Shown here piece after piece: positions 32,462-56,748 of a stretch of 64,000 nt of DNA. Position numbers and translations under genes: made by a program. The stretch is from Escherichia coli (lineage in GTDB: Bacteria > Pseudomonadota > Gammaproteobacteria > Enterobacterales > Enterobacteriaceae): assembly GCF_003018255.1 (NCBI RefSeq), contig NZ_CP027440.1; one strand, written 5' to 3'. The notes beneath the pieces are model-generated. The model ran no database searches. It was not told where the DNA came from and saw only the letters and a program-made list of their open reading frames with translations. Position 1 is the first letter of the stretch. Each line of letters opens with the position of its first letter.

Positions 32462-33753
32462 CCAGGGAAAGATCACGTAACGCTGCTTTTTTGCACTAAA
32501 TAATTCGCATTTTATGTTTAAAAATTGAGATATTCCTCATTACCTGAAGCTGTTTTTTATTGCGTATACATGTTCAAATACTCCTTACATAATTAAGGAG
32601 AACAAAATGGAACTTAAAAAATTGATGGAACATATTTCTGTTATCCCCGATTACAGACAAGCCTGGAAAGTGGAACATAAATTGTCGGATATTCTACTGT
32701 TGACTATTTGTGCCGTTATTTCTGGTGCAGAAGGCTGGGAAGATATAGAGGATTTTGGGGAAACACATCTCGATTTTTTGAAGCAATATGGTGATTTTGA
32801 AAATGGTATTCCTGTTCACGATACCATTGCCAGAGTTGTATCCTGTATCAGTCCTGCAAAATTTCACGAGTGCTTTATTAACTGGATGCGTGACTGCCAT
32901 TCTTCAGATGATAAAGACGTTATTGCAATTGATGGAAAAACGCTCCGGCATTCTTATGACAAGAGTCGCCGCAGGGGAGCGATTCATGTCATTAGTGCGT
33001 TCTCAACAATGCACAGTCTGGTCATCGGACAGATCAGGACGGATGAGAAATCCAATGAGATCACAGCTATCCCAGAACTTCTTAACATGATGGATATTAA
33101 AGGAAAAATCATCACAACTGATGCGATGGGTTGCCAGAAAGATATCGCAGATAAGATACAAAAACAGGGCGGTGATTATTTATTCGCTGTAAAAGGAAAT
33201 CAGGGGCGGCTTAATAAAGCCTTTGAGGAAAATTTCCCACTGAAAGAATTAAATAATCCAGAGCATGACAGTTACGCAATTAGTGAAAAAAGTCACGGCA
33301 GAGAAGAAATCCGTCTTCATATTGTTTGCGATGTCCCTGATGAACTTATTGATTTCATGTTTGAATGGAAAGGTCTGAAGAAATTATGCGTGGCAGTCTC
33401 CTTTCGGTCAATAATAGCAGAACAAAAGAAAGAGCCAGAAATGACGGTCAGATATTATATCAGTTCTGCTGATTTAACCGCAGAGAAGTTCGCCACAGCA
33501 ATCCGAAACCACTGGCACGTGGAGAATAAGCTGCACTGGCGTCTGGACGTGGTAATGAATGAAGACGACTGCAAAATAAGAAGAGGAAATGCAGCAGAAT
33601 TATTTTCAGGGATACGGCACATCGCTATTAATATTTTAACGAATGATAATGTATTCAAGGCAGGGTTAAGACGTAAGATGCGAAAAGCAGCCATGGACAG
33701 AAACTACCTGGCGTCAGTCCTTGCGGGGAGCGGGCTTTCGTAATCTTTCCCTG
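32462..33753 (+). mobile_element. H-repeat element (ISAs1-family insertion sequence), copy 1, about 1292 bp with imperfect terminal inverted repeats cagggaaagatca ... taatctttccctg
   Basis: Near-identical to copy 2 at 39125..40415; ends defined by where the two copies lose similarity to each other; IRs read from sequence. Confidence 0.8.
32607..33743 (+). CDS. H-repeat-associated protein / ISAs1-family transposase (378 aa)
   Basis: 378-aa ORF with AAGGAG site; about 97 percent identical to the ORF at 39269..40405; recognised as YdcC/YhhI-type H-rpt protein. Confidence 0.85.
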
Positions 33754-34425: not shown

Positions 34426-37400
34426 ATGAGCGGAAAACCAGCGGCGCGTCAGGGAGATATGACTCAGTATGGCGGTCCCATTGTCCAGGGTTCGGCAGGT
34501 GTAAGAATTGGCGCGCCCACCGGCGTGGCGTGCTCGGTGTGTCCGGGCGGGATGACTTCGGGCAACCCGGTAAATCCGCTGCTGGGGGCGAAGGTGCTGC
34601 CCGGCGAGACGGACCTTGCGCTGCCCGGCCCGCTGCCGTTCATTCTCTCCCGCACCTACAGCAGCTACCGGACGAAGACGCCTGCGCCGGTGGGGATTTT
34701 TGGCCCCGGCTGGAAAGCGCCTTCTGATATCCGCTTACAGATACGCGATGATGCACTGGTACTCAACGACAACGGCGGACGGAGCATTCACTTTGAGCCG
34801 CTGCTGCCGGGTGAGGCGGTGTACAGCCGCAGCGAGTCAATGTGGCTGGTGCGCGGTGGTAAGGCAGCGCAGCCGGACGGCCACACGCTGGGGCGGCTGT
34901 GGGGGGCGCTGCCGCCGGATATCCGGTTAAGCCCGCATCTTTACCTGGCGACCAGCAGCGCACAGGGACCGTGGTGGATACTGGGGTGGTCAGAGCGGGT
35001 GCCGGGTGCTGAGGACGTACTGCCAGCGCCGCTGCCGCCGTACCGGGTGCTGACGGGGCTGGCGGACCGCTTCGGGCGGACGCTGACGTACCGGCGTGAG
35101 GCCGCCGGCGACCTGGCCGGGGAAATCACCGGCGTGACGGACGGTGCCGGGCGTGAGTTCCGTCTGGTGCTGACCACGCAGGCGCAGCGTGCGGAAGAGG
35201 CCCGCACCTCTTCGCTATCTTCTTCTGACCGTCCCCGCCCTCTCTCAGTCTCAGCGTTCCCCGACACACTGCCCGGTACCGAATACGGCCCCGACAGGGG
35301 TATCCGCCTTTCGGCGGTGTGGCTGATGCACGACCCGGCATACCCGGAGAGCCTGCCCGGTGCGCCACTGGTGCGGTACACGTATACGGAAGCCGGTGAA
35401 CTGCTGGCGGTATATGACCGCAGCAATACGCAGGTGCGCGCTTTCACGTATGACGCGCAGCACCCGGGCCGGATGGTGGCGCACCGTTACGCGGGAAGGC
35501 CGGAGATGCGCTACCGCTACGACGATGCGGGGCGGGTGGTGGAGCAGCTGAACCCGGCAGGCCTGAGTTACCGCTACCAGTATGAGCAGGACCGCATCAC
35601 CGTCACCGACAGCCTGAACCGGCGTGAGGTGCTGCATACAGAAGGCGGGGCCGGGCTGAAGCGGGTGGTGAAAAAAGAACTGGCGGACGGCAGCGTCACG
35701 CACAGCGGGTATGACGCGGCAGGAAGGCTCACGGCACAGACGGACGCGGCGGGACGGCGGACAGAGTACGGCCTGAATGTGGTGTCCGGCGATATCACGG
35801 ATATCACCACGCCGGACGGGCGGGAGACGAAATTTTACTATAACGACGGGAACCAGTTAACGGCGGTGGTGTACCCGGACGGGCTGGAGAGCAGCCGGGC
35901 ATATGATGAGCTGGACAGACTGGTATCGGAGACATCGCGCAGCGGGGAGACAGTACGCTACCGCTACGATGACGTGCACAGTGAGTTACCGGCGACGACA
36001 ACGGATGCGACGGGCAGCACCCGGCAGATGACCTGGAGCCGCTACGGGCAGTTGCTGGCCTTCACCGACTGCTCGGGCTACCAGACCCGCTATGAATACG
36101 ACCGCTTCGGCCAGATGACGGCGGTTCACCGCGAGGAAGGTATCAGCCTTTACCGCCACTATGACAACCGTGGCCGGTTAACCTCGGTGAAAGACGCACA
36201 GGGCCGTGAAACGCAGTATGAGTACAACGCCGCAGGCGACCTGACTGCCGTTATCACCCCGGACGGCAACCGGAGCGAGACACAGTACGATGCGTGGGGA
36301 AAGGCGGTCAGCACCACGCAGGGCGGGCTGACGCGCAGTATGGAGTACGATGCTGCCGGACGTGTCATCAGCCTGACCAACGAGAACGGCAGTCACAGCG
36401 ACTTCAGCTACGATGCGCTGGACCGCCTGGTACAGCAGGGCGGCTTTGACGGGCGGACGCAACGTTATCATTATGACCTGACCGGAAAACTCACGCAGAG
36501 TGAAGATGAGGGGCTTGTCATCCTCTGGTACTACGATGAATCGGACCGTATCACTCACCGCACGGTGAACGGCGAACCGGCAGAGCAGTGGCAGTATGAT
36601 GGCCACGGCTGGCTGAGAGAAATCAGCCACCTGAGCGAAGGCCACCGTGTTGCCGTCCACTATGGCTACGACGATAAGGGCCGTCTGACCGGGGAGCGCC
36701 AGACGGTGGAGAACCCGGAGACGGGGGAACTGCTGTGGCAGCATGAGACGAAACAGGCATACAACGAACAGGGGCTGGCAAACCGCGTCACGCCGGACAG
36801 CCTGCCGCCGGTGGAGTGGCTGGCCTATGGCAGCGGTTATCTGGCGGGCATGAAGCTGGGCGGGACGCCGCTGCTGGAGTACATGCGGGACAGACTGCAC
36901 CGGGAGACGGTGCGCAGCTTCGGCAGCATGGCAGGCAATACAGCCGCATATGAACTGACCAGCACTTACACCCCCGCAGGCCAGTTACAGAGCCGGCACC
37001 TGAACAGCCTGGTGTTTGATTGTGACTATAACTGGAATGACAACGGCGACCTGATGCGCATCAGCGGCCCGCGACAGACGCGGGAATACGGCTACAGCGC
37101 CACGGGCAGGCTGGAGAGCGTGCGCACCCTCGCACCGGACCTGGACATCCGCATCCCGTATGCCACCGACCCGGCGGGCAACCGGCTGCCGGACCCGGAG
37201 CTGCACCCGGACAGTACACTCACAGTGTGGCCGGATAACCGAATCACCGAAGACGCGCACTACCTGTACCGTTACGATGAATACGGCAGGCTGGCGGAGA
37301 AGACGGACCGCATCCCGGCGGGTGTGATACGGACGGACGACGAGCGGACCCACCACTACCACTACGACAGCCAGCACCGCCTGGTGTTCTATACGCGGAT

Positions 37401-38586
37401 ACAGCATGGCGAGCCACTGGTCGAGAGCCGCTACCTTTACGACCCGCTGGGCCGCCGGACGGGTAAACGGGTATGGCGGCGGGAGCGTGACCTGACGGGG
37501 TGGATGTCGCTGTCGCGTAAACCGGAGGTGACGTGGTACGGCTGGGACGGCGACCACCTGACGACGGTGCAGACCGACACCACGCGTATCCAGACGGTAT
37601 ATCAGCCGGGGAGCTTCGCGCCGCTCATCCGCATCGAAACAGACAACGGTGAGCGGGAGAAAGCGCAGCGCCGCAGCCTGGCGGAGAAGCTGCAGCAGGA
37701 AGGGAGCGAGGACGGGCACGGCGTGGTATTTCCGGCTGAACTGGTGCGGCTGCTGGACAGACTGGAGGAAGAAATCCGGGCAGACCGCGTGAGCAGTGAA
37801 AGCCGGGCGTGGCTTGCGCAGTGCGGGCTGACGGTGGAGCAACTGGAAAAACAGGTGGAGCCGGAATACACACCGGCGCGAAAAGTTCATCTTTACCACT
37901 GCGACCACCGGGGACTGCCGCTGGCGCTTATCAGCGAAGACGGCAATACGGTGTGGAGCGCGGAGTATGATGAATGGGGAAACCTGCTTAATGAGGAGAA
38001 CCCGCATCATGTGTATCAGTCATACCGTCTGCCGGGGCAGCAGCATGATGAGGAGTCGGGGCTGTACTACAACCGGAACCGGTACTACGATCCGTTGCAG
38101 GGGCGGTATATCATCCAGGACCCGATAGGGCTGGCGGGGGGAATAAACCCGTACAGTTATGTTATGAACAATCCTGTGCAATGGATTGATCCATTGGGAT
38201 TAGCTCATACTTCAGGAAAATGGAAGGACTGTGGTAAAGGTTGTCGAATCCGAATAGATGGCGATGCTGTTGGTGACGGAAGACATTTGCATTGGGAGTG
38301 TAAAAATGGGAGTGGTGTAATGGGGGAATTTGGAGGTATGTCCCATGGTGAGGATTACTCATCAGCACCAAATAGCATTAAGAAATGTGCAAAAAAATAT
38401 GGTTTCGAGCCAGAACCAAGTAAAGATCTGTCATGCAAAACCTCCGGGCTATCAACTACTGATGCGGCTCTTGCAACTGGTGCTACAATTGGCGCAGGGT
38501 ATGTTATATATAGAGTGATTCGATTTATACCTTCACTTGCACCACCTCTTTGGTGGTCAATACCTGCAAACGTTGTTACTCCATGA
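34426..38586 (+). CDS. rhsE: Rhs-family polymorphic toxin with N-terminal PAAR motif, YD-repeat core and divergent C-terminal domain (1386 aa)
   Basis: Literal PAAR at residues 5-8 ([11 protein letters not shown]); numerous YD repeats; conserved core end DPIGLAGG...DPLGL at 38119-38202; sharp GC-rich to AT-rich switch after about 38160. Confidence 0.9.
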
Positions 38587-38957: not shown

Positions 38958-39124
38958 CCAAATAAAAGGACTGGAGGAATCAGGGGAAGATCATTAAAGT
39001 TGTGATTATCATCACAACTTTAATCTTGGTTTCACCTTGTTGATTTGATTAAAATTTAATCGCCAAATAATTAAATATATTAGAAAAGGACGTCTGGTGA
39101 ACATTCAAAGTCTTCTTGAGCATA

Positions 39125-40415
39125 CAGGGAAAGATCATCAGAAGTACACTTTTTGTACTAAATAATTCGCATTTTATGTTTAAAAATTGAGATATTCCTC
39201 ATTACCTAAAGCTGTTTTTTATTGCTTATACATGATCAAATACTCCTTACATAATTAAGGAGAACAAAATGGAACTTAAAAAATTGATGGGACATATTTC
39301 TATTATCCCCGATTACAGACAAACCTGGAAAGTGGAACATAAATTGTCAGATATTCTACTGTTGATTATTAGTGCCGTTATTTCTGGTGCAGAAGGCTGG
39401 GAAGATATAGAGGATTTTGGGGAAACACATCTCGATTTTTTAAAGCAATATGGTGATTTTAAAAATGGTATTCCTGTTCACGATACCATTGCCAGAGTTG
39501 TATCCTGTATCAGTCCTGCAAAATTTCACGAGTGCTTTATTAACTGGATGCGTGACTGCCATTCTTCAGATGATAAAGACGTCATTGCAATTGATGGAAA
39601 AACGCTCCGGCATTCTTATGACAAGAGTCGTCGCAGGGGAGCGATTCATGTCATTAGTGCATTCTCAACAATGCACAGTCTGGTCATCGGACAGATCAGG
39701 ACGGATGAGAAATCTAATGAGATTACAGCTATCCCTGAACTTCTTAACATGCTGGACATTAAAGGAAAAATTATCACAACTGATGCGATGGGTTGCCAGA
39801 AAGATATTGCAGAGAAGATACAAAAACAGGGAGGTGATTATTTATTCTCTGTAAAAGGAAACCCGGGGCGGCTGAATAAAGCTTTTGAGGAAAAATTTCC
39901 ACTGAAAGAATTAAATAATCCAGAGCATGACAGTTACGCAATTAGTGAAAAGAGTCACGGCAGAGAAGAAATCCGTCTTCACATTGTTTGCGATGTCCCT
40001 GATGAACTTATTGATTTCACGTTTGAATGGAAAGGTCTGAAGAAATTATGCGTGGCAGTCTCCTTTCGGTCAATAATAGCAGAACAAAAGAAAGAGCCAG
40101 AAATGACGGTCAGATATTATATCAGTTCTGCTGATTTAACCGCAGAGATGTTCGCCACAGCAATCCGAAACCACTGGCACGTGGAGAATAAGCTGCACTG
40201 GCGTCTGGACGTGGTAATGAATGAAGACGACTGCAAAATAAGAAGAGGAAACGCCGCAGAATTATTTTCAGGGATACGGCACATCGCTATTAATATTTTA
40301 ACGAATGATAAGGTATTCAAGGCAGGGTTAAGACGTAAGATGCGAAAAGCAGCCATGGACAAAAACTATCTGGCGTCAGTCCTTGCGGGGAGCGGGCTTT
40401 CGTAATCTTTCCCTG
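39125..40415 (+). mobile_element. H-repeat element (ISAs1-family insertion sequence), copy 2, about 1291 bp, same orientation as copy 1
   Basis: Near-identical to 32462..33753 including terminal inverted repeats. Confidence 0.8.
39269..40405 (+). CDS. H-repeat-associated protein / ISAs1-family transposase (378 aa)
   Basis: 378-aa ORF with AAGGAG site; paralogue of 32607..33743. Confidence 0.85.
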
Positions 40416-40419
40416 TATT

Positions 40420-40707
40420 GTGAAATCATCAAGAGTACATATAGATCATGATAAAGATATTTTTGATGGCCTTGACAAAATCTTGGCTTTTTCCGATAAA
40501 AATAAGCATGAGTATTTTTTATATATAAAGGCATATTGGCTCAGTTTATACTTTTGTGAAATTTCTCAGAAAGTGAGAGAAAGAGATAAGTTGTCATTTT
40601 ATTATGATGAATTTTCTGTCCGATTTCCTAATGTTGTCCTATATCCGACATACTTCCAATTGCATGGTTTAGCATCTGAAAAGTCATTGTTAATTCGAGA
40701 CGCTTGA
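40420..40707 (+). other. AT-rich reading frame open from the H-repeat right boundary (95 codons); probable 3' remnant of a gene truncated by the insertion
   Basis: Frame is open right at the element end; no recognisable product. Confidence 0.3.
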
Positions 40708-40986
40708 TTGTCCACTATATCAAAATAGTCATGCCCCGGAATTTTCTCACATTAGTCCATAAGGGATTCAATTTTTGTAATTGCACCCTGAAAAAACCGC
40801 AAAAGTGCTTTGTCGTGTCCTGTCGCAATGAAGTCTGGTGTTAATGTTATACTTTAATTGATATTTAAAGAGATGGCTTCTTTGCTTATATAAATACCCA
40901 TCTATTCTTTCTCAAAAATATTGGCTCAGATTAACCATGTTCCACGCAAACAATTTTCAAACATTCATCAATAGATAAGGAATTCC

Positions 40987-41454
40987 ATGATTATACGACC
41001 AGTCAAACCTTCAGATGTTGAACCATTACTGGATATGCTGCTTGCCAGTGGACAATTTAATCAAGATGGCCTTCATCATGTACAAAAAACACTAACACAT
41101 TATTTCTCAGGTCAATCTGCCGATTTATGGTTTAGTGCAGAACACTTAGGACTGGCAGGGATTGCCTATTGCGCTCCTGAAGTGATGACAAATGATGTCT
41201 GGAATTTATTAATGCACTGGATCAGTCCTTCCCATCAGCGCCAGGGAGTGGGACATCTGCTGATTAACGAAATAGAAAAGGAGCTCACAATTAAACAGGC
41301 AAGACTACTTTTAGTAGAGACCTCCAGCTATGTCGATTTTAGTGCCGCCCGCGCATTTTATACATAACAGGGCTTTATCAATGAAGCTATAATACGCAAT
41401 TACTATGATGTTGGTGAGGATAAATTAATCTTCACTAAAAATATGCAATCGTGA
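40987..41454 (+). pseudogene. GNAT-family N-acetyltransferase interrupted by an in-frame TAA at 41365-41367
   Basis: ORF 40987..41367 (126 aa) continues in the same frame for 28 more codons to TGA 41452-41454; sequence around the stop reads AFYT*QGF versus the GNAT consensus FY.K.GF. Confidence 0.6.
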
Positions 41455-41520
41455 GATAAAATATGCTTTTAACTCATATTGAAACATTGCTTAAGCAACT
41501 TGGTTGCTGCATATGATTCT

Positions 41521-42090
41521 TTAGCCCGCGGTGACTCGCTTGCCGCTGGTAACAAACGTGCCAGCGCCTAAATGATGCAACGTATTGAGCTTATCATCAT
41601 CAAACTGCCAGCGGCCTTCGACAAATACCCGTGCGTCTGCCGCTGCTGATACCACTTCGCCAAACAGCGTGTCGTATTTCTCTTGCGCGGAAGTCGCTGG
41701 TAGCAATCGGCACTCCATCCACGCCAGACATTTCTCTTCAACAAGTGGCAAACCAAGCACCGGACCTTTCACCACCGGAATGCCATAGCAATAAAATTTA
41801 TCCTCTTCACGCCCAGATACACTTCCCACTGCCCACGTCCAGTTAGTCGCTGCAACGCCTGGGATAACGATGCCAAATTTACCGTTACGCTCAATCAACT
41901 CCCTGGTCCATGTCGACTTATCTACCACAATCGCCACGCGTGGAGGTTCAAACTCCACCGGCATTGACCAGGCTGCAGCCATAATGTTACGCCGCTGGGA
42001 TTGCTCATCGAAACTGGTGATCAAGACAGTTGGGCCATGATTTAACAGACGGCTGGCATGGTGTAATTCGACGGGAATGAATTGGCTCAC
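41521..42090 (-). CDS. yddH: Flavin reductase-like domain protein
   Basis: 189-aa ORF; recognised as YddH. Confidence 0.8.
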   Translation of the reverse strand: MSQFIPVELHHASRLLNHGPTVLITSFDEQSQRRNIMAAAWSMPVEFEPPRVAIVVDKSTWTRELIERNGKFGIVIPGVAATNWTWAVGSVSGREEDKFYCYGIPVVKGPVLGLPLVEEKCLAWMECRLLPATSAQEKYDTLFGEVVSAAADARVFVEGRWQFDDDKLNTLHHLGAGTFVTSGKRVTAG

Positions 42091-42264
42091 GATATCGCCT
42101 CGCTATGAAGGGTGTTTTAAAAGCGTAGCTCGTAACGCAATAAGTAACGAAATTAACGGGATTGGCGATTTGCGAACGTGATGCATGTCCGCGATCGCAC
42201 AAAATAGCCGGTGCGGCGTCTATTCCAGGTTATAAGTTGAGAAAACCACTAAGGGAAACGCCTG

Positions 42265-53700: not shown

Positions 53701-56700
53701 ATGGACGTCAGTCGCAGACAATTTTTTAAAATCTGCGCGGGCGGTATGGCTGGAACAACGGTAGCGGCATTGGGCTTTGCCCCGAAGCAAGCACTGGCTC
53801 AGGCGCGAAACTACAAATTATTACGCGCGAAAGAGATCCGTAACACCTGCACATACTGTTCCGTAGGTTGCGGGCTATTGATGTATAGCCTGGGTGATGG
53901 CGCGAAAAACGCCAGAGAAGCGATTTATCACATTGAAGGTGACCCGGATCATCCGGTAAGCCGTGGTGCGCTGTGCCCGAAAGGGGCCGGTTTGCTGGAT
54001 TACGTCAACAGCGAAAACCGTCTGCGCTACCCGGAATATCGTGCGCCAGGTTCTGACAAATGGCAGCGCATTAGCTGGGAAGAAGCATTCTCCCGTATTG
54101 CGAAGCTGATGAAAGCTGACCGTGACGCTAACTTTATTGAAAAGAACGAGCAGGGCGTAACGGTAAACCGTTGGCTTTCTACCGGTATGCTGTGTGCCTC
54201 CGGTGCCAGCAACGAAACCGGGATGCTGACTCAAAAATTTGCCCGCTCCCTCGGGATGCTGGCAGTAGACAACCAGGCGCGCGTCTGACACGGACCAACG
54301 GTAGCAAGTCTTGCTCCAACATTTGGTCGCGGTGCGATGACCAACCACTGGGTGGATATCAAAAACGCTAACGTCGTAATGGTGATGGGCGGTAACGCTG
54401 CTGAAGCGCATCCCGTCGGTTTCCGCTGGGCGATGGAAGCGAAAAACAACAACGATGCAACCTTGATCGTTGTCGATCCCCGTTTTACGCGTACCGCTTC
54501 TGTAGCGGATATTTACGCACCTATTCGTTCCGGTACGGACATTACGTTCCTGTCTGGCGTTTTGCGCTACCTGATCGAAAACAACAAAATCAATGCCGAA
54601 TACGTTAAGCATTACACCAATGCCAGCCTGCTGGTGCGTGATGATTTTGCTTTCGAAGACGGTCTGTTCAGCGGCTACGACGCTGAAAAACGGCAATACG
54701 ATAAATCGTCCTGGAACTATCAGTTCGATGAAAACGGCTATGCGAAACGCGATGAAACACTGACTCATCCGCGCTGTGTGTGGAACCTGCTGAAAGCGCA
54801 CGTTTCCCGCTACACGCCGGACGTTGTTGAAAACATCTGCGGTACGCCAAAAGCCGACTTCCTGAAAGTGTGTGAAGTGCTGGCCTCCACCAGCGCACCG
54901 GATCGCACAACCACCTTCCTGTACGCGCTGGGCTGGACGCAGCACACCGTGGGTGCGCAGAACATCCGTACTATGGCGATGATCCAGTTGCTGCTCGGTA
55001 ACATGGGTATGGCCGGTGGCGGCGTGAACGCATTGCGTGGTCACTCCAACATTCAGGGCCTGACCGACTTAGGTCTGCTCTCAACCAGCCTGCCGGGTTA
55101 TCTGACGCTGCCGTCAGAAAAACAGGTTGATTTGCAGTCGTATCTGGAAGCGAATACGCCGAAAGCGACGCTGGCTGATCAGGTGAACTACTGGAGCAAC
55201 TATCCGAAGTTCTTCGTTAGCCTGATGAAATCTTTCTACGGCGATGCCGCGCAAAAAGAGAACAACTGGGGCTACGACTGGCTGCCGAAGTGGGACCAGA
55301 CCTACGACGTCATCAAGTATTTCAACATGATGGACGAAGGCAAAGTCACCGGTTATTTCTGCCAGGGCTTTAACCCGGTTGCGTCCTTCCCGGACAAAAA
55401 CAAAGTGGTGAGCTGCCTGAGCAAGCTGAAGTACATGGTGGTTATCGATCCGCTGGTGACTGAAACCTCTACCTTCTGGCAGAACCACGGCGAGTCGAAC
55501 GATGTCGATCCGGCGTCCATTCAGACTGAAGTATTCCGTCTGCCTTCGACCTGCTTTGCTGAAGAAGATGGTTCTATTGCTAACTCCGGTCGCTGGTTGC
55601 AGTGGCACTGGAAAGGTCAGGACGCGCCGGGCGAAGCACGTAACGACGGCGAAATTCTGGCGGGTATCTACCATCATCTGCGCGAGCTGTACCAGGCCGA
55701 GGGTGGTAAAGGCGTAGAACCGCTGATGAAGATGAGCTGGAACTACAAGCAGCCGCACGAACCGCAATCTGACGAAGTGGCGAAAGAGAACAACGGCTAT
55801 GCGCTGGAAGATCTCTATGACGCTAATGGCGTGCTGATTGCGAAGAAAGGTCAGTTGCTGAGTAGCTTTGCGCATCTGCGTGATGATGGTACAACCGCAT
55901 CTTCTTGCTGGATCTACACCGGTAGCTGGACAGAGCAGGGCAACCAGATGGCTAACCGCGATAACTCCGACCCGTCCGGTCTGGGGAATACGCTGGGATG
56001 GGCCTGGGCGTGGCCGCTCAACCGTCGCGTGCTGTACAACCGTGCTTCGGCGGATATCAACGGTAAACCGTGGGATCCGAAACGGATGCTGATCCAGTGG
56101 AACGGCAGCAAGTGGACGGGTAACGATATTCCGGACTTCGGCAATGCCGCACCGGGTACGCCAACCGGGCCGTTTATCATGCAGCCGGAAGGGATGGGAC
56201 GCCTGTTTGCCATCAACAAAATGGCGGAAGGTCCGTTCCCGGAACACTACGAGCCAATCGAAACGCCGCTGGGCACTAACCCGCTGCATCCGAACGTGGT
56301 GTCTAACCCGGTTGTTCGTCTGTATGAACAAGACGCGCTGCGGATGGGTAAAAAAGAGCAGTTCCCGTATGTGGGTACGACCTATCGTCTGACCGAGCAC
56401 TTCCACACCTGGACCAAGCACGCATTGCTCAACGCAATTGCTCAGCCGGAACAGTTTGTGGAAATCAGCGAAACGCTGGCGGCGGCGAAAGGCATTGCCA
56501 ATGGCGATCGTGTCACTGTCTCCAGCAAGCGTGGCTTTATCCGCGCGGTGGCTGTGGTAACGCGCCGTCTGAAACCGCTGAATGTAAACGGTCAGCAGGT
56601 TGAAACGGTGGGTATTCCAATCCACTGGGGCTTTGAGGGTGTCGCGCGTAAAGGTTATATCGCTAACACTCTGACGCCGAATGTCGGTGATGCAAACTCG

Positions 56701-56748
56701 CAAACGCCGGAATATAAAGCGTTCTTAGTCAACATCGAGAAGGCGTAA
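53701..56748 (+). CDS. fdnG: Formate dehydrogenase-N alpha subunit, selenoprotein (in-frame UGA = selenocysteine at 54286-54288), Tat-exported
   Basis: ORF-track ORFs 53701..54288 and 54337..56748 are in the same frame and separated only by TGA; total 1015 aa; Tat signal MDVSRRQFFK; recognised as FdnG. Confidence 0.9.
54289..54330 (+). other. Putative SECIS element directing selenocysteine insertion at the fdnG UGA
   Basis: Located immediately 3' of the in-frame TGA as in bacterial selenoprotein mRNAs; contains short inverted repeat gcaag-tc-ttgc; structure not folded. Confidence 0.45.

Follow-up and report, generated by a model that had tools for sequence, protein, structure and literature searches.

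Organization of the locus

The window, by which we mean the entire 64,000-nucleotide (64-kb) stretch of Escherichia coli DNA analyzed here, carries a GNAT-family acetyltransferase gene whose reading frame is interrupted by an in-frame TAA codon. The gene sits on an AT-rich segment between an insertion sequence of the ISAs1 family and yddH. The features of this region, with the evidence that defines each, are as follows.

39122-40418, plus strand: insertion sequence of the ISAs1 family (H-repeat, ydcC-like) that has perfect inverted repeats of 14 nt; the variable segment has its left breakpoint at the right end of this element
40416-41486, no strand assigned: AT-rich segment (1,071 bp, 35.5% GC) absent from K-12 (homology breakpoints, GC content)
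40420-40707, plus strand: 3' fragment, the last 95 codons of a gene for a 220-aa protein (collinearity of 40416-42200 with L006-L008, of which L007 is from strain PT62; protein comparison)
40987-41367, plus strand: truncated GNAT acetyltransferase ORF, 126 codons and TAA (ORF list, Pfam; CDS WP_001563339.1 in an identical genome)
41365-41367, plus strand: premature ochre stop K127*, AAA to TAA, with T at 41365 (allele and family alignments)
41368-41454, plus strand: orphaned 3' coding remainder, 28 codons and the original TGA, encoding β6 and β7 (sequence and structural model)
41521-42090, minus strand: yddH (flavin reductase family), the convergent downstream neighbor, where the conserved backbone resumes (ORF list, K-12 comparison)

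The GC content of the 1,071-bp segment compares with 51-52% in the flanking genes yddH, nhoA, and yddE. The segment occupies the place of a 287-bp segment of K-12 (L009:6964-7250) that holds most of pptA. In MG1655, the gene order is ydcC(ISAs1)-pptA-yddH-nhoA, and homology with the window resumes at 41487. Neither blastn nor tblastn detected pptA anywhere in the window, in keeping with the statement in the original prediction that K-12 has pptA at this position and that the gene is absent here. Of 5,426 complete E. coli genomes, 4,100 have the pptA segment and ~660 have some part of the GNAT segment. A scan of positions 40400-41600 for promoters and terminators returned fewer promoter-like matches than shuffled sequences and no terminator, and is uninformative.

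The ISAs1 copy adjoining the segment forms the last part of an Rhs element and lies 570 bp upstream of the GNAT gene. Two ISAs1/H-repeat copies are present in this part of the window (32463-33753 and 39122-40418), each ~96% identical to K-12 ydcC, and they bracket an Rhs core ORF of 1,386 aa (34426-38586). Strains JNE112863 and JNE23-011 carry three ISAs1 copies over the same stretch, and this difference in copy number between relatives indicates that the Rhs/ISAs1 array is rearranging within the lineage. The right junction of the element also varies, lying at window-equivalent position 40416 here, at 40881 in 2014C-3075, and at 40926 in CFT073, and meeting the pptA segment in K-12. A succession of deletions or replacements next to the IS could have produced this variation. 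The 220-aa hypothetical protein encoded upstream of the GNAT gene is intact in PT62 (L007:1546-2208), and the window copy is cut by the right end of ISAs1 at 40418. In the GF4-3 annotation, the homolog of the ORF at 40420-40707 is called an 'aminopeptidase'.

Orthologs of the GNAT gene occupy other settings in other genera. The Salmonella ortholog lies in an integrase-bearing island, and the Phytobacter ortholog is found beside an IS3 transposase and a MarR/MFS gene pair. No conserved partner gene is present across the E. coli, Salmonella, and Phytobacter neighborhoods, and this, together with the mobile settings, points to a stand-alone, horizontally moving accessory gene. The gene is not notably plasmid-borne, as plasmid collections contain only three E. 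coli matches (one of them chromosome-sized) in addition to distant relatives in other phyla.

An interrupted reading frame

Both the sequence and a mechanical ORF list give a 126-codon ORF on the plus strand, from the ATG at 40987 to the TAA at 41365-41367. Beyond the TAA, the same frame continues through 28 sense codons (41368-41451) to a TGA at 41452-41454, exactly as the original prediction had described. Translation across the stop reads SAARAFYT, then the TAA, then QGFINEAIIRNYYDVGEDKLIFTKNMQS up to the TGA. At the local base composition, 28 open codons would follow a stop by chance with P ~0.13, so it is homology, rather than the length of the open frame, that identifies the tail as real. 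The tail contains no in-frame ATG, GTG, or TTG before codon 153, which rules out a split enzyme with a separately translated C-terminal piece.

Family assignment and predicted fold

With lysine restored at codon 127, the 155-aa product scores 38.8 bits against PF13508 (Acetyltransf_7), 31.1 bits against PF00583 (Acetyltransf_1), and 25.9 bits against PF13673, where the Pfam gathering cut-offs are 27, 20.7, and 23.6 bits, respectively. The truncated 126-aa product still passes the first two (28.9 and 24.8 bits) and fails the third (19.3 bits). Scores above these curated gathering thresholds are those expected of a GNAT superfamily member. The window product also contains motif A, Q84-R-Q-G87-V-G89, which is located between β4 and α3 and conforms to the Q/R-x-x-G-x-G/A pattern of the acetyl-CoA pyrophosphate-binding loop. 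G87 and G89 are each conserved in at least 90% of the family.

AlphaFold models the intact E. coli allele with high confidence from a 60-sequence alignment (mean pLDDT 96.3, pTM 0.90). The model comprises β1 (residues 2-5), α1 (8-21), α2 (26-40), β2 (47-52), β3 (56-64), β4 (71-79), α3 (88-102), β5 (107-113), α4 (116-127), β6 (131-141), and β7 (144-152). Among solved structures, the nearest is 2R7H (Dde_3044), a Desulfovibrio desulfuricans protein determined by structural genomics and described as a putative acetyltransferase. The model superposes on this solved GNAT over all 155 residues, with a TM score of 0.90 and an rmsd of 1.8 Å, and the sequence alignment of the two reaches residue 150. 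Profile, motif, and fold thus all place the gene in the GNAT superfamily, and it shares with other members the Pfam profiles, motif A, and, in the intact allele, the β1-α1-α2-β2-β3-β4-α3-β5-α4-β6-β7 topology.

The window copy differs from other members in stopping inside motif B. Codon 127, at which the stop lies, specifies the last residue of α4, and the truncation wholly removes β6 and β7, so that the central sheet loses two of its seven strands. The intact allele has the complete GNAT fold, including these two strands, whereas the window product, which ends at residue 126, does not. By descent the gene is thus a GNAT gene, although what the window copy encodes falls short of a whole GNAT domain. 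β7 is usually described as the partner of β5 within the central sheet of GNAT proteins, and a protein without β6-β7 is accordingly expected to be unstable or inactive.

Two other assignments within the superfamily were considered. The protein resembles RimI, the ribosomal protein bS18-alanine N-acetyltransferase, in size, and some sources label its relatives 'RimI-like'. However, identity with RimI is ~22%, and the gene lies in mobile or variable DNA rather than at the rimI locus. Scores well below the cut-offs of the NCBIfam equivalog models (39 vs 86.4 for TIGR01575 and 26.7 vs 173 for NF007025) rule out a RimI identity. A type II toxin-antitoxin GNAT of the TacT/AtaT/ItaT type is likewise ruled out, since there is no conserved small partner ORF and the neighbors differ in E. 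coli, Salmonella, and Phytobacter. No toxin family in NCBIfam matches the protein. Literature searches on the locus and on the RefSeq accessions of the proteins found nothing relevant.

E111 and Y125, both kept in the truncated product, align with E103 and Y115 of E. coli RimI (5ISV). We take E103 and Y115 to be catalytic in RimI, which makes E111 and Y125 putative catalytic residues here. With these residues and motif A in place, a sequence that still scores as a GNAT, and an allele that has persisted in a lineage, the 126-residue product might be thought to have a function of its own, such as acetyl-CoA binding or a regulatory or dominant-negative role. We regard this as very improbable: the truncation takes away two sheet strands, the allele carries non-conservative changes in the core, and none of the 60 family members aligned, from any genus, has a shorter architecture of the 126-residue type.

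Homologs and the direction of change

A search of 5.8 billion clustered proteins identified relatives of ~155 residues in Salmonella, Enterobacter, Phytobacter, Kluyvera, Citrobacter, Serratia, Aeromonas, Yokenella, and more distant bacteria, and 60 family members from many genera were aligned. The column of the stop is occupied by lysine in 48 of these, by arginine in 7, and by another sense residue in 5; no other member has a stop there. The consensus across the stop is ARAFYxKQGF, so the FY-x-K-x-GF motif cited in the original prediction is right for this family. That prediction had also stated what would speak against it, namely orthologs that all terminate at the same position. The opposite was found, as all 60 relatives extend 26-51 residues beyond the stop column.

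Conservation does not drop downstream of the stop, where the majority fraction in the 60-sequence alignment is 0.66-0.71, compared with 0.68 for the remainder of the protein. The tail carries the family-conserved residues G129, F130, E133, A134, I136, D145, and K146, of which K146 is invariant and G129, F130, E133, A134, and I136 are conserved in at least 90% of the aligned sequences. The portion lost from the window product is thus conserved, and established knowledge of the GNAT fold indicates that it is structurally required.

Base-by-base alignment places an A at 41365 in CFT073, M00057, ST69, 2014C-3075, LHM10-1, PT62, and GF4-3. Among the alleles aligned in this way, a T is found only in the window and in strain DETEC-S792. 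The codon is AAA (Lys) in every other E. coli allele examined, and the single AAA-to-TAA change that had been proposed holds up. Given AAA in other E. coli alleles and lysine in the outgroup genera, TAA is the derived state, and on the evidence of these alignments it was reached by one A-to-T transversion from AAA (Lys-127).

A real allele in one lineage

The stop is a genuine feature of the DNA. Three complete genomes, each from a separate project, carry the 468-bp allele at 100% identity: DETEC-S792 (China), JNE23-011, and JNE112863. Over 15 kb, these genomes are 99.5, 99.2, and 98.6% identical to the window, so all three are assemblies other than that of the window. The 126-aa product is also listed, in exactly this form, on 391 contigs. 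A sequencing or assembly error, in which the true codon would be AAA and the gene intact, was among the options first raised, and a single-base difference is indeed the type of change that errors produce. The independent occurrence of the allele in three complete genomes and the contig records exclude this option for practical purposes, and the site lies outside any homopolymer run. The K127* allele is fixed in one E. coli lineage.

In one of the genomes with an identical allele, the truncated 126-aa ORF is annotated as an ordinary 'GNAT family N-acetyltransferase' CDS, WP_001563339.1, with no pseudogene flag (NZ_CP116067.1, L001:3088-3468).

Readthrough and recoding

A stop codon followed by an open, homologous frame could also be bypassed, and readthrough or ochre suppression might then supply a functional amount of full-length enzyme from a gene still in use. 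Several features could be cited for this. The 28 downstream codons contain no further disabling change, although a second lesion would hardly be expected within 87 nt. The stop is followed by C, reportedly a weaker termination context for UAA. The RNA at 41362-41460 (99 nt) folds better than shuffled sequences (z = -2.95); however, intact alleles share the sequence that forms this fold, which therefore did not evolve for bypass. We take the fold as incidental rather than as a readthrough-stimulating structure. An 11-bp hairpin, UUGGUGAGGAU/AUCUUCACUAA, at 41411-41438 near the 3' end of the GNAT frame, contributes to this z-score and is not followed by a U-run.

The distribution of the stop argues against bypass more directly. 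A recoding site would be conserved, whereas this TAA is confined to one haplotype: among the 647 complete genomes in which the stretch is present, only 3 have the exact 61-mer around it. Conservation of the stop among orthologs with selection on the downstream frame, the pattern expected of recoding, is therefore not seen. Core strand β4 of the same allele also carries the L77H change. In E. coli, termination is more efficient at UAA than at the other stop codons, and no programmed UAA readthrough signal is known in this species. No tRNA gene is present in the 64-kb window, which excludes a nearby suppressor tRNA, and an Rfam scan of the window found nothing at the GNAT stop, its only match being a SECIS at 54283-54341. 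The original prediction had already considered readthrough unlikely, and with one haplotype, no Rfam element at the site, and no tRNA gene in the window, we see hardly any prospect that the gene is still used in this way.

The SECIS match belongs to a true recoding site in the same window. The gene fdnG (53701-56748, plus strand) encodes the large subunit of formate dehydrogenase-N, and its SECIS_3 element (54283-54341, Rfam 84.3 bits) reflects known biology; the mechanical ORF list splits the gene into two pieces in the same frame, 53701-54288 and 54337-56748. Like the GNAT gene, fdnG has an in-frame stop followed by an open homologous frame. Unlike it, the fdnG selenocysteine codon is a TGA (54286-54288) with a directly following SECIS, while the GNAT stop is a TAA that has no such element and is not conserved. 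We thus reject selenocysteine insertion or other recoding at the GNAT stop, the stop being TAA and the only Rfam match in the window being the fdnG SECIS.

A probable nonsense pseudogene

Taken together, we conclude that the gene is very probably an ordinary nonsense pseudogene (K127*) of an accessory GNAT acetyltransferase gene. The ancestral product would have been a stand-alone protein of 155 residues, predicted to be a GNAT-fold N-acetyltransferase and encoded on foreign AT-rich DNA beside ISAs1. The A-to-T transversion at 41365 converted Lys-127 (AAA) to TAA within the conserved A-R-A-F-Y-x-K-Q-G-F motif at the end of helix α4. Translation therefore ends after residue 126, and the product keeps motif A, which binds acetyl-CoA, together with Glu-111 and Tyr-125 as putative catalytic residues. 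The data show the mutation and its direction, the truncation, and the spread of the allele in a lineage. Judged by the fold, a product missing β6 and β7 would be misfolded or inactive, and we infer the loss of activity from this.

It counts against a pseudogene that the truncated product passes PF13508 (28.9 vs 27 bits) and that RefSeq annotates it as a normal CDS. The gene resembles nonsense pseudogenes near the Rhs/H-repeat elements of E. coli, with a single point lesion, intact orthologs elsewhere, an adjacent IS, multiple independent lesions in different lineages, and AT-rich foreign DNA; at this locus in K-12, rhsE and yncI carry pseudogene annotations. The sole difference from ordinary nonsense pseudogenes is that the ORF keeps 81% of its length, which explains why RefSeq assigns no pseudogene flag.

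Age and constraint of the window haplotype

The window haplotype differs from all other alleles by F2I, D25N, L77H, H115Y, I116V, and one synonymous change. Column 77, in core strand β4, is Leu in 53 and Ile in 7 of the 60 relatives, and column 25 is Asp in 49 of the 60. H115Y and I116V are also found in 3'-remnant alleles, which have AAA at codon 127, and these two changes therefore predate the stop. The ratio of non-synonymous to synonymous changes is 5:1 on the window lineage versus 4:8 among intact alleles. This suggests relaxed constraint on the window lineage, although the contrast involves few sites and is not significant (Fisher p = 0.13).

Among ~15 billion proteins, there is no K127 precursor and no single-base revertant (Q, E, Y, L, or S) of the exact haplotype. 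A fixed allele with five lineage-specific amino acid changes and no recorded precursor indicates that the gene may have been drifting for some time. Of the 'recent nonsense pseudogene' originally proposed, the nonsense pseudogene stands, and 'recent' has to be qualified on these grounds.

State of the gene across E. coli

The ~660 genomes that carry some part of the GNAT segment, among the 5,426 complete E. coli genomes, contain the gene in the following states.

Intact ORF of 468 nt, Lys at codon 127, each one verified by translation: 12 genomes
K127* (TAA): 3 genomes
GF4-3 frameshift, likewise at codon 98 but distinct from that of the CFT073 type, GAAAAAGAGCTC to GAAAAAAACTC: 1 genome
CFT073/B2 type, with W72* (TGG to TGA), an A5-to-A4 frameshift at codon 98, and amino acid substitutions, G89R in motif A among them: ~417 genomes
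3' remnant only (M00057/ST69 type), with a 463-bp deletion of 40830-41292: ~228 genomes

The intact ORF is thus kept by 12 of 5,426 complete genomes, and the gene is decaying independently in several E. coli lineages and is mostly a relic in the species. In CFT073-type genomes, what remains is a 71-aa stub annotated as a 'hypothetical protein'. Two of the 12 'intact' alleles, in VE-T9 and XJ5.2 (GNAT CDS at 201-668 in L021 and L022), have G87E in motif A or D145G, and judging from these substitutions, some full-length E. coli ORFs may also be inactive.

Independent lesions in other lineages fit a dispensable gene in decay. The same lesions might instead mean that loss was favored by selection in E. 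coli, with the TAA as one knock-out among several that arose convergently. Inactivating lesions of at least five kinds in different haplotypes, an intact ORF in only 12 of ~660 carriers, and missense changes at conserved sites in 2 of the 12 intact alleles would all fit such selection. However, neutral decay of a dispensable acquired gene beside an active IS/Rhs recombination hotspot predicts the same pattern, and the intact LHM10-1-type protein is common in draft assemblies, where it occurs on 603 contigs. We therefore consider convergent, selected loss unlikely. The broader proposition that the losses (K127*, W72* with its frameshift, the second frameshift, the 463-bp deletion, and the replacement by the pptA segment) reflect selection against an active enzyme seems to us similarly doubtful. 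Were it true, modification of a cellular target by the acetyltransferase would lower fitness in most E. coli strain backgrounds. In a weaker variant, low-level UAA readthrough may keep a trace of full-length enzyme.

Implications

As a nonsense pseudogene, the GNAT gene carries small weight for biology, being another decaying accessory gene at a recombination-prone IS/Rhs junction. A practical consequence concerns annotation, as pan-genome and function catalogs count a dead gene as a live one (WP_001563339.1). The ydcC-yddH junction is polymorphic in E. coli: it holds either pptA or the GNAT segment, the latter decayed to various degrees, and can conveniently be used to mark lineages. For the 155-aa family itself, the few intact E. 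coli alleles, such as WP_000470660.1, are the ones suited to characterization.
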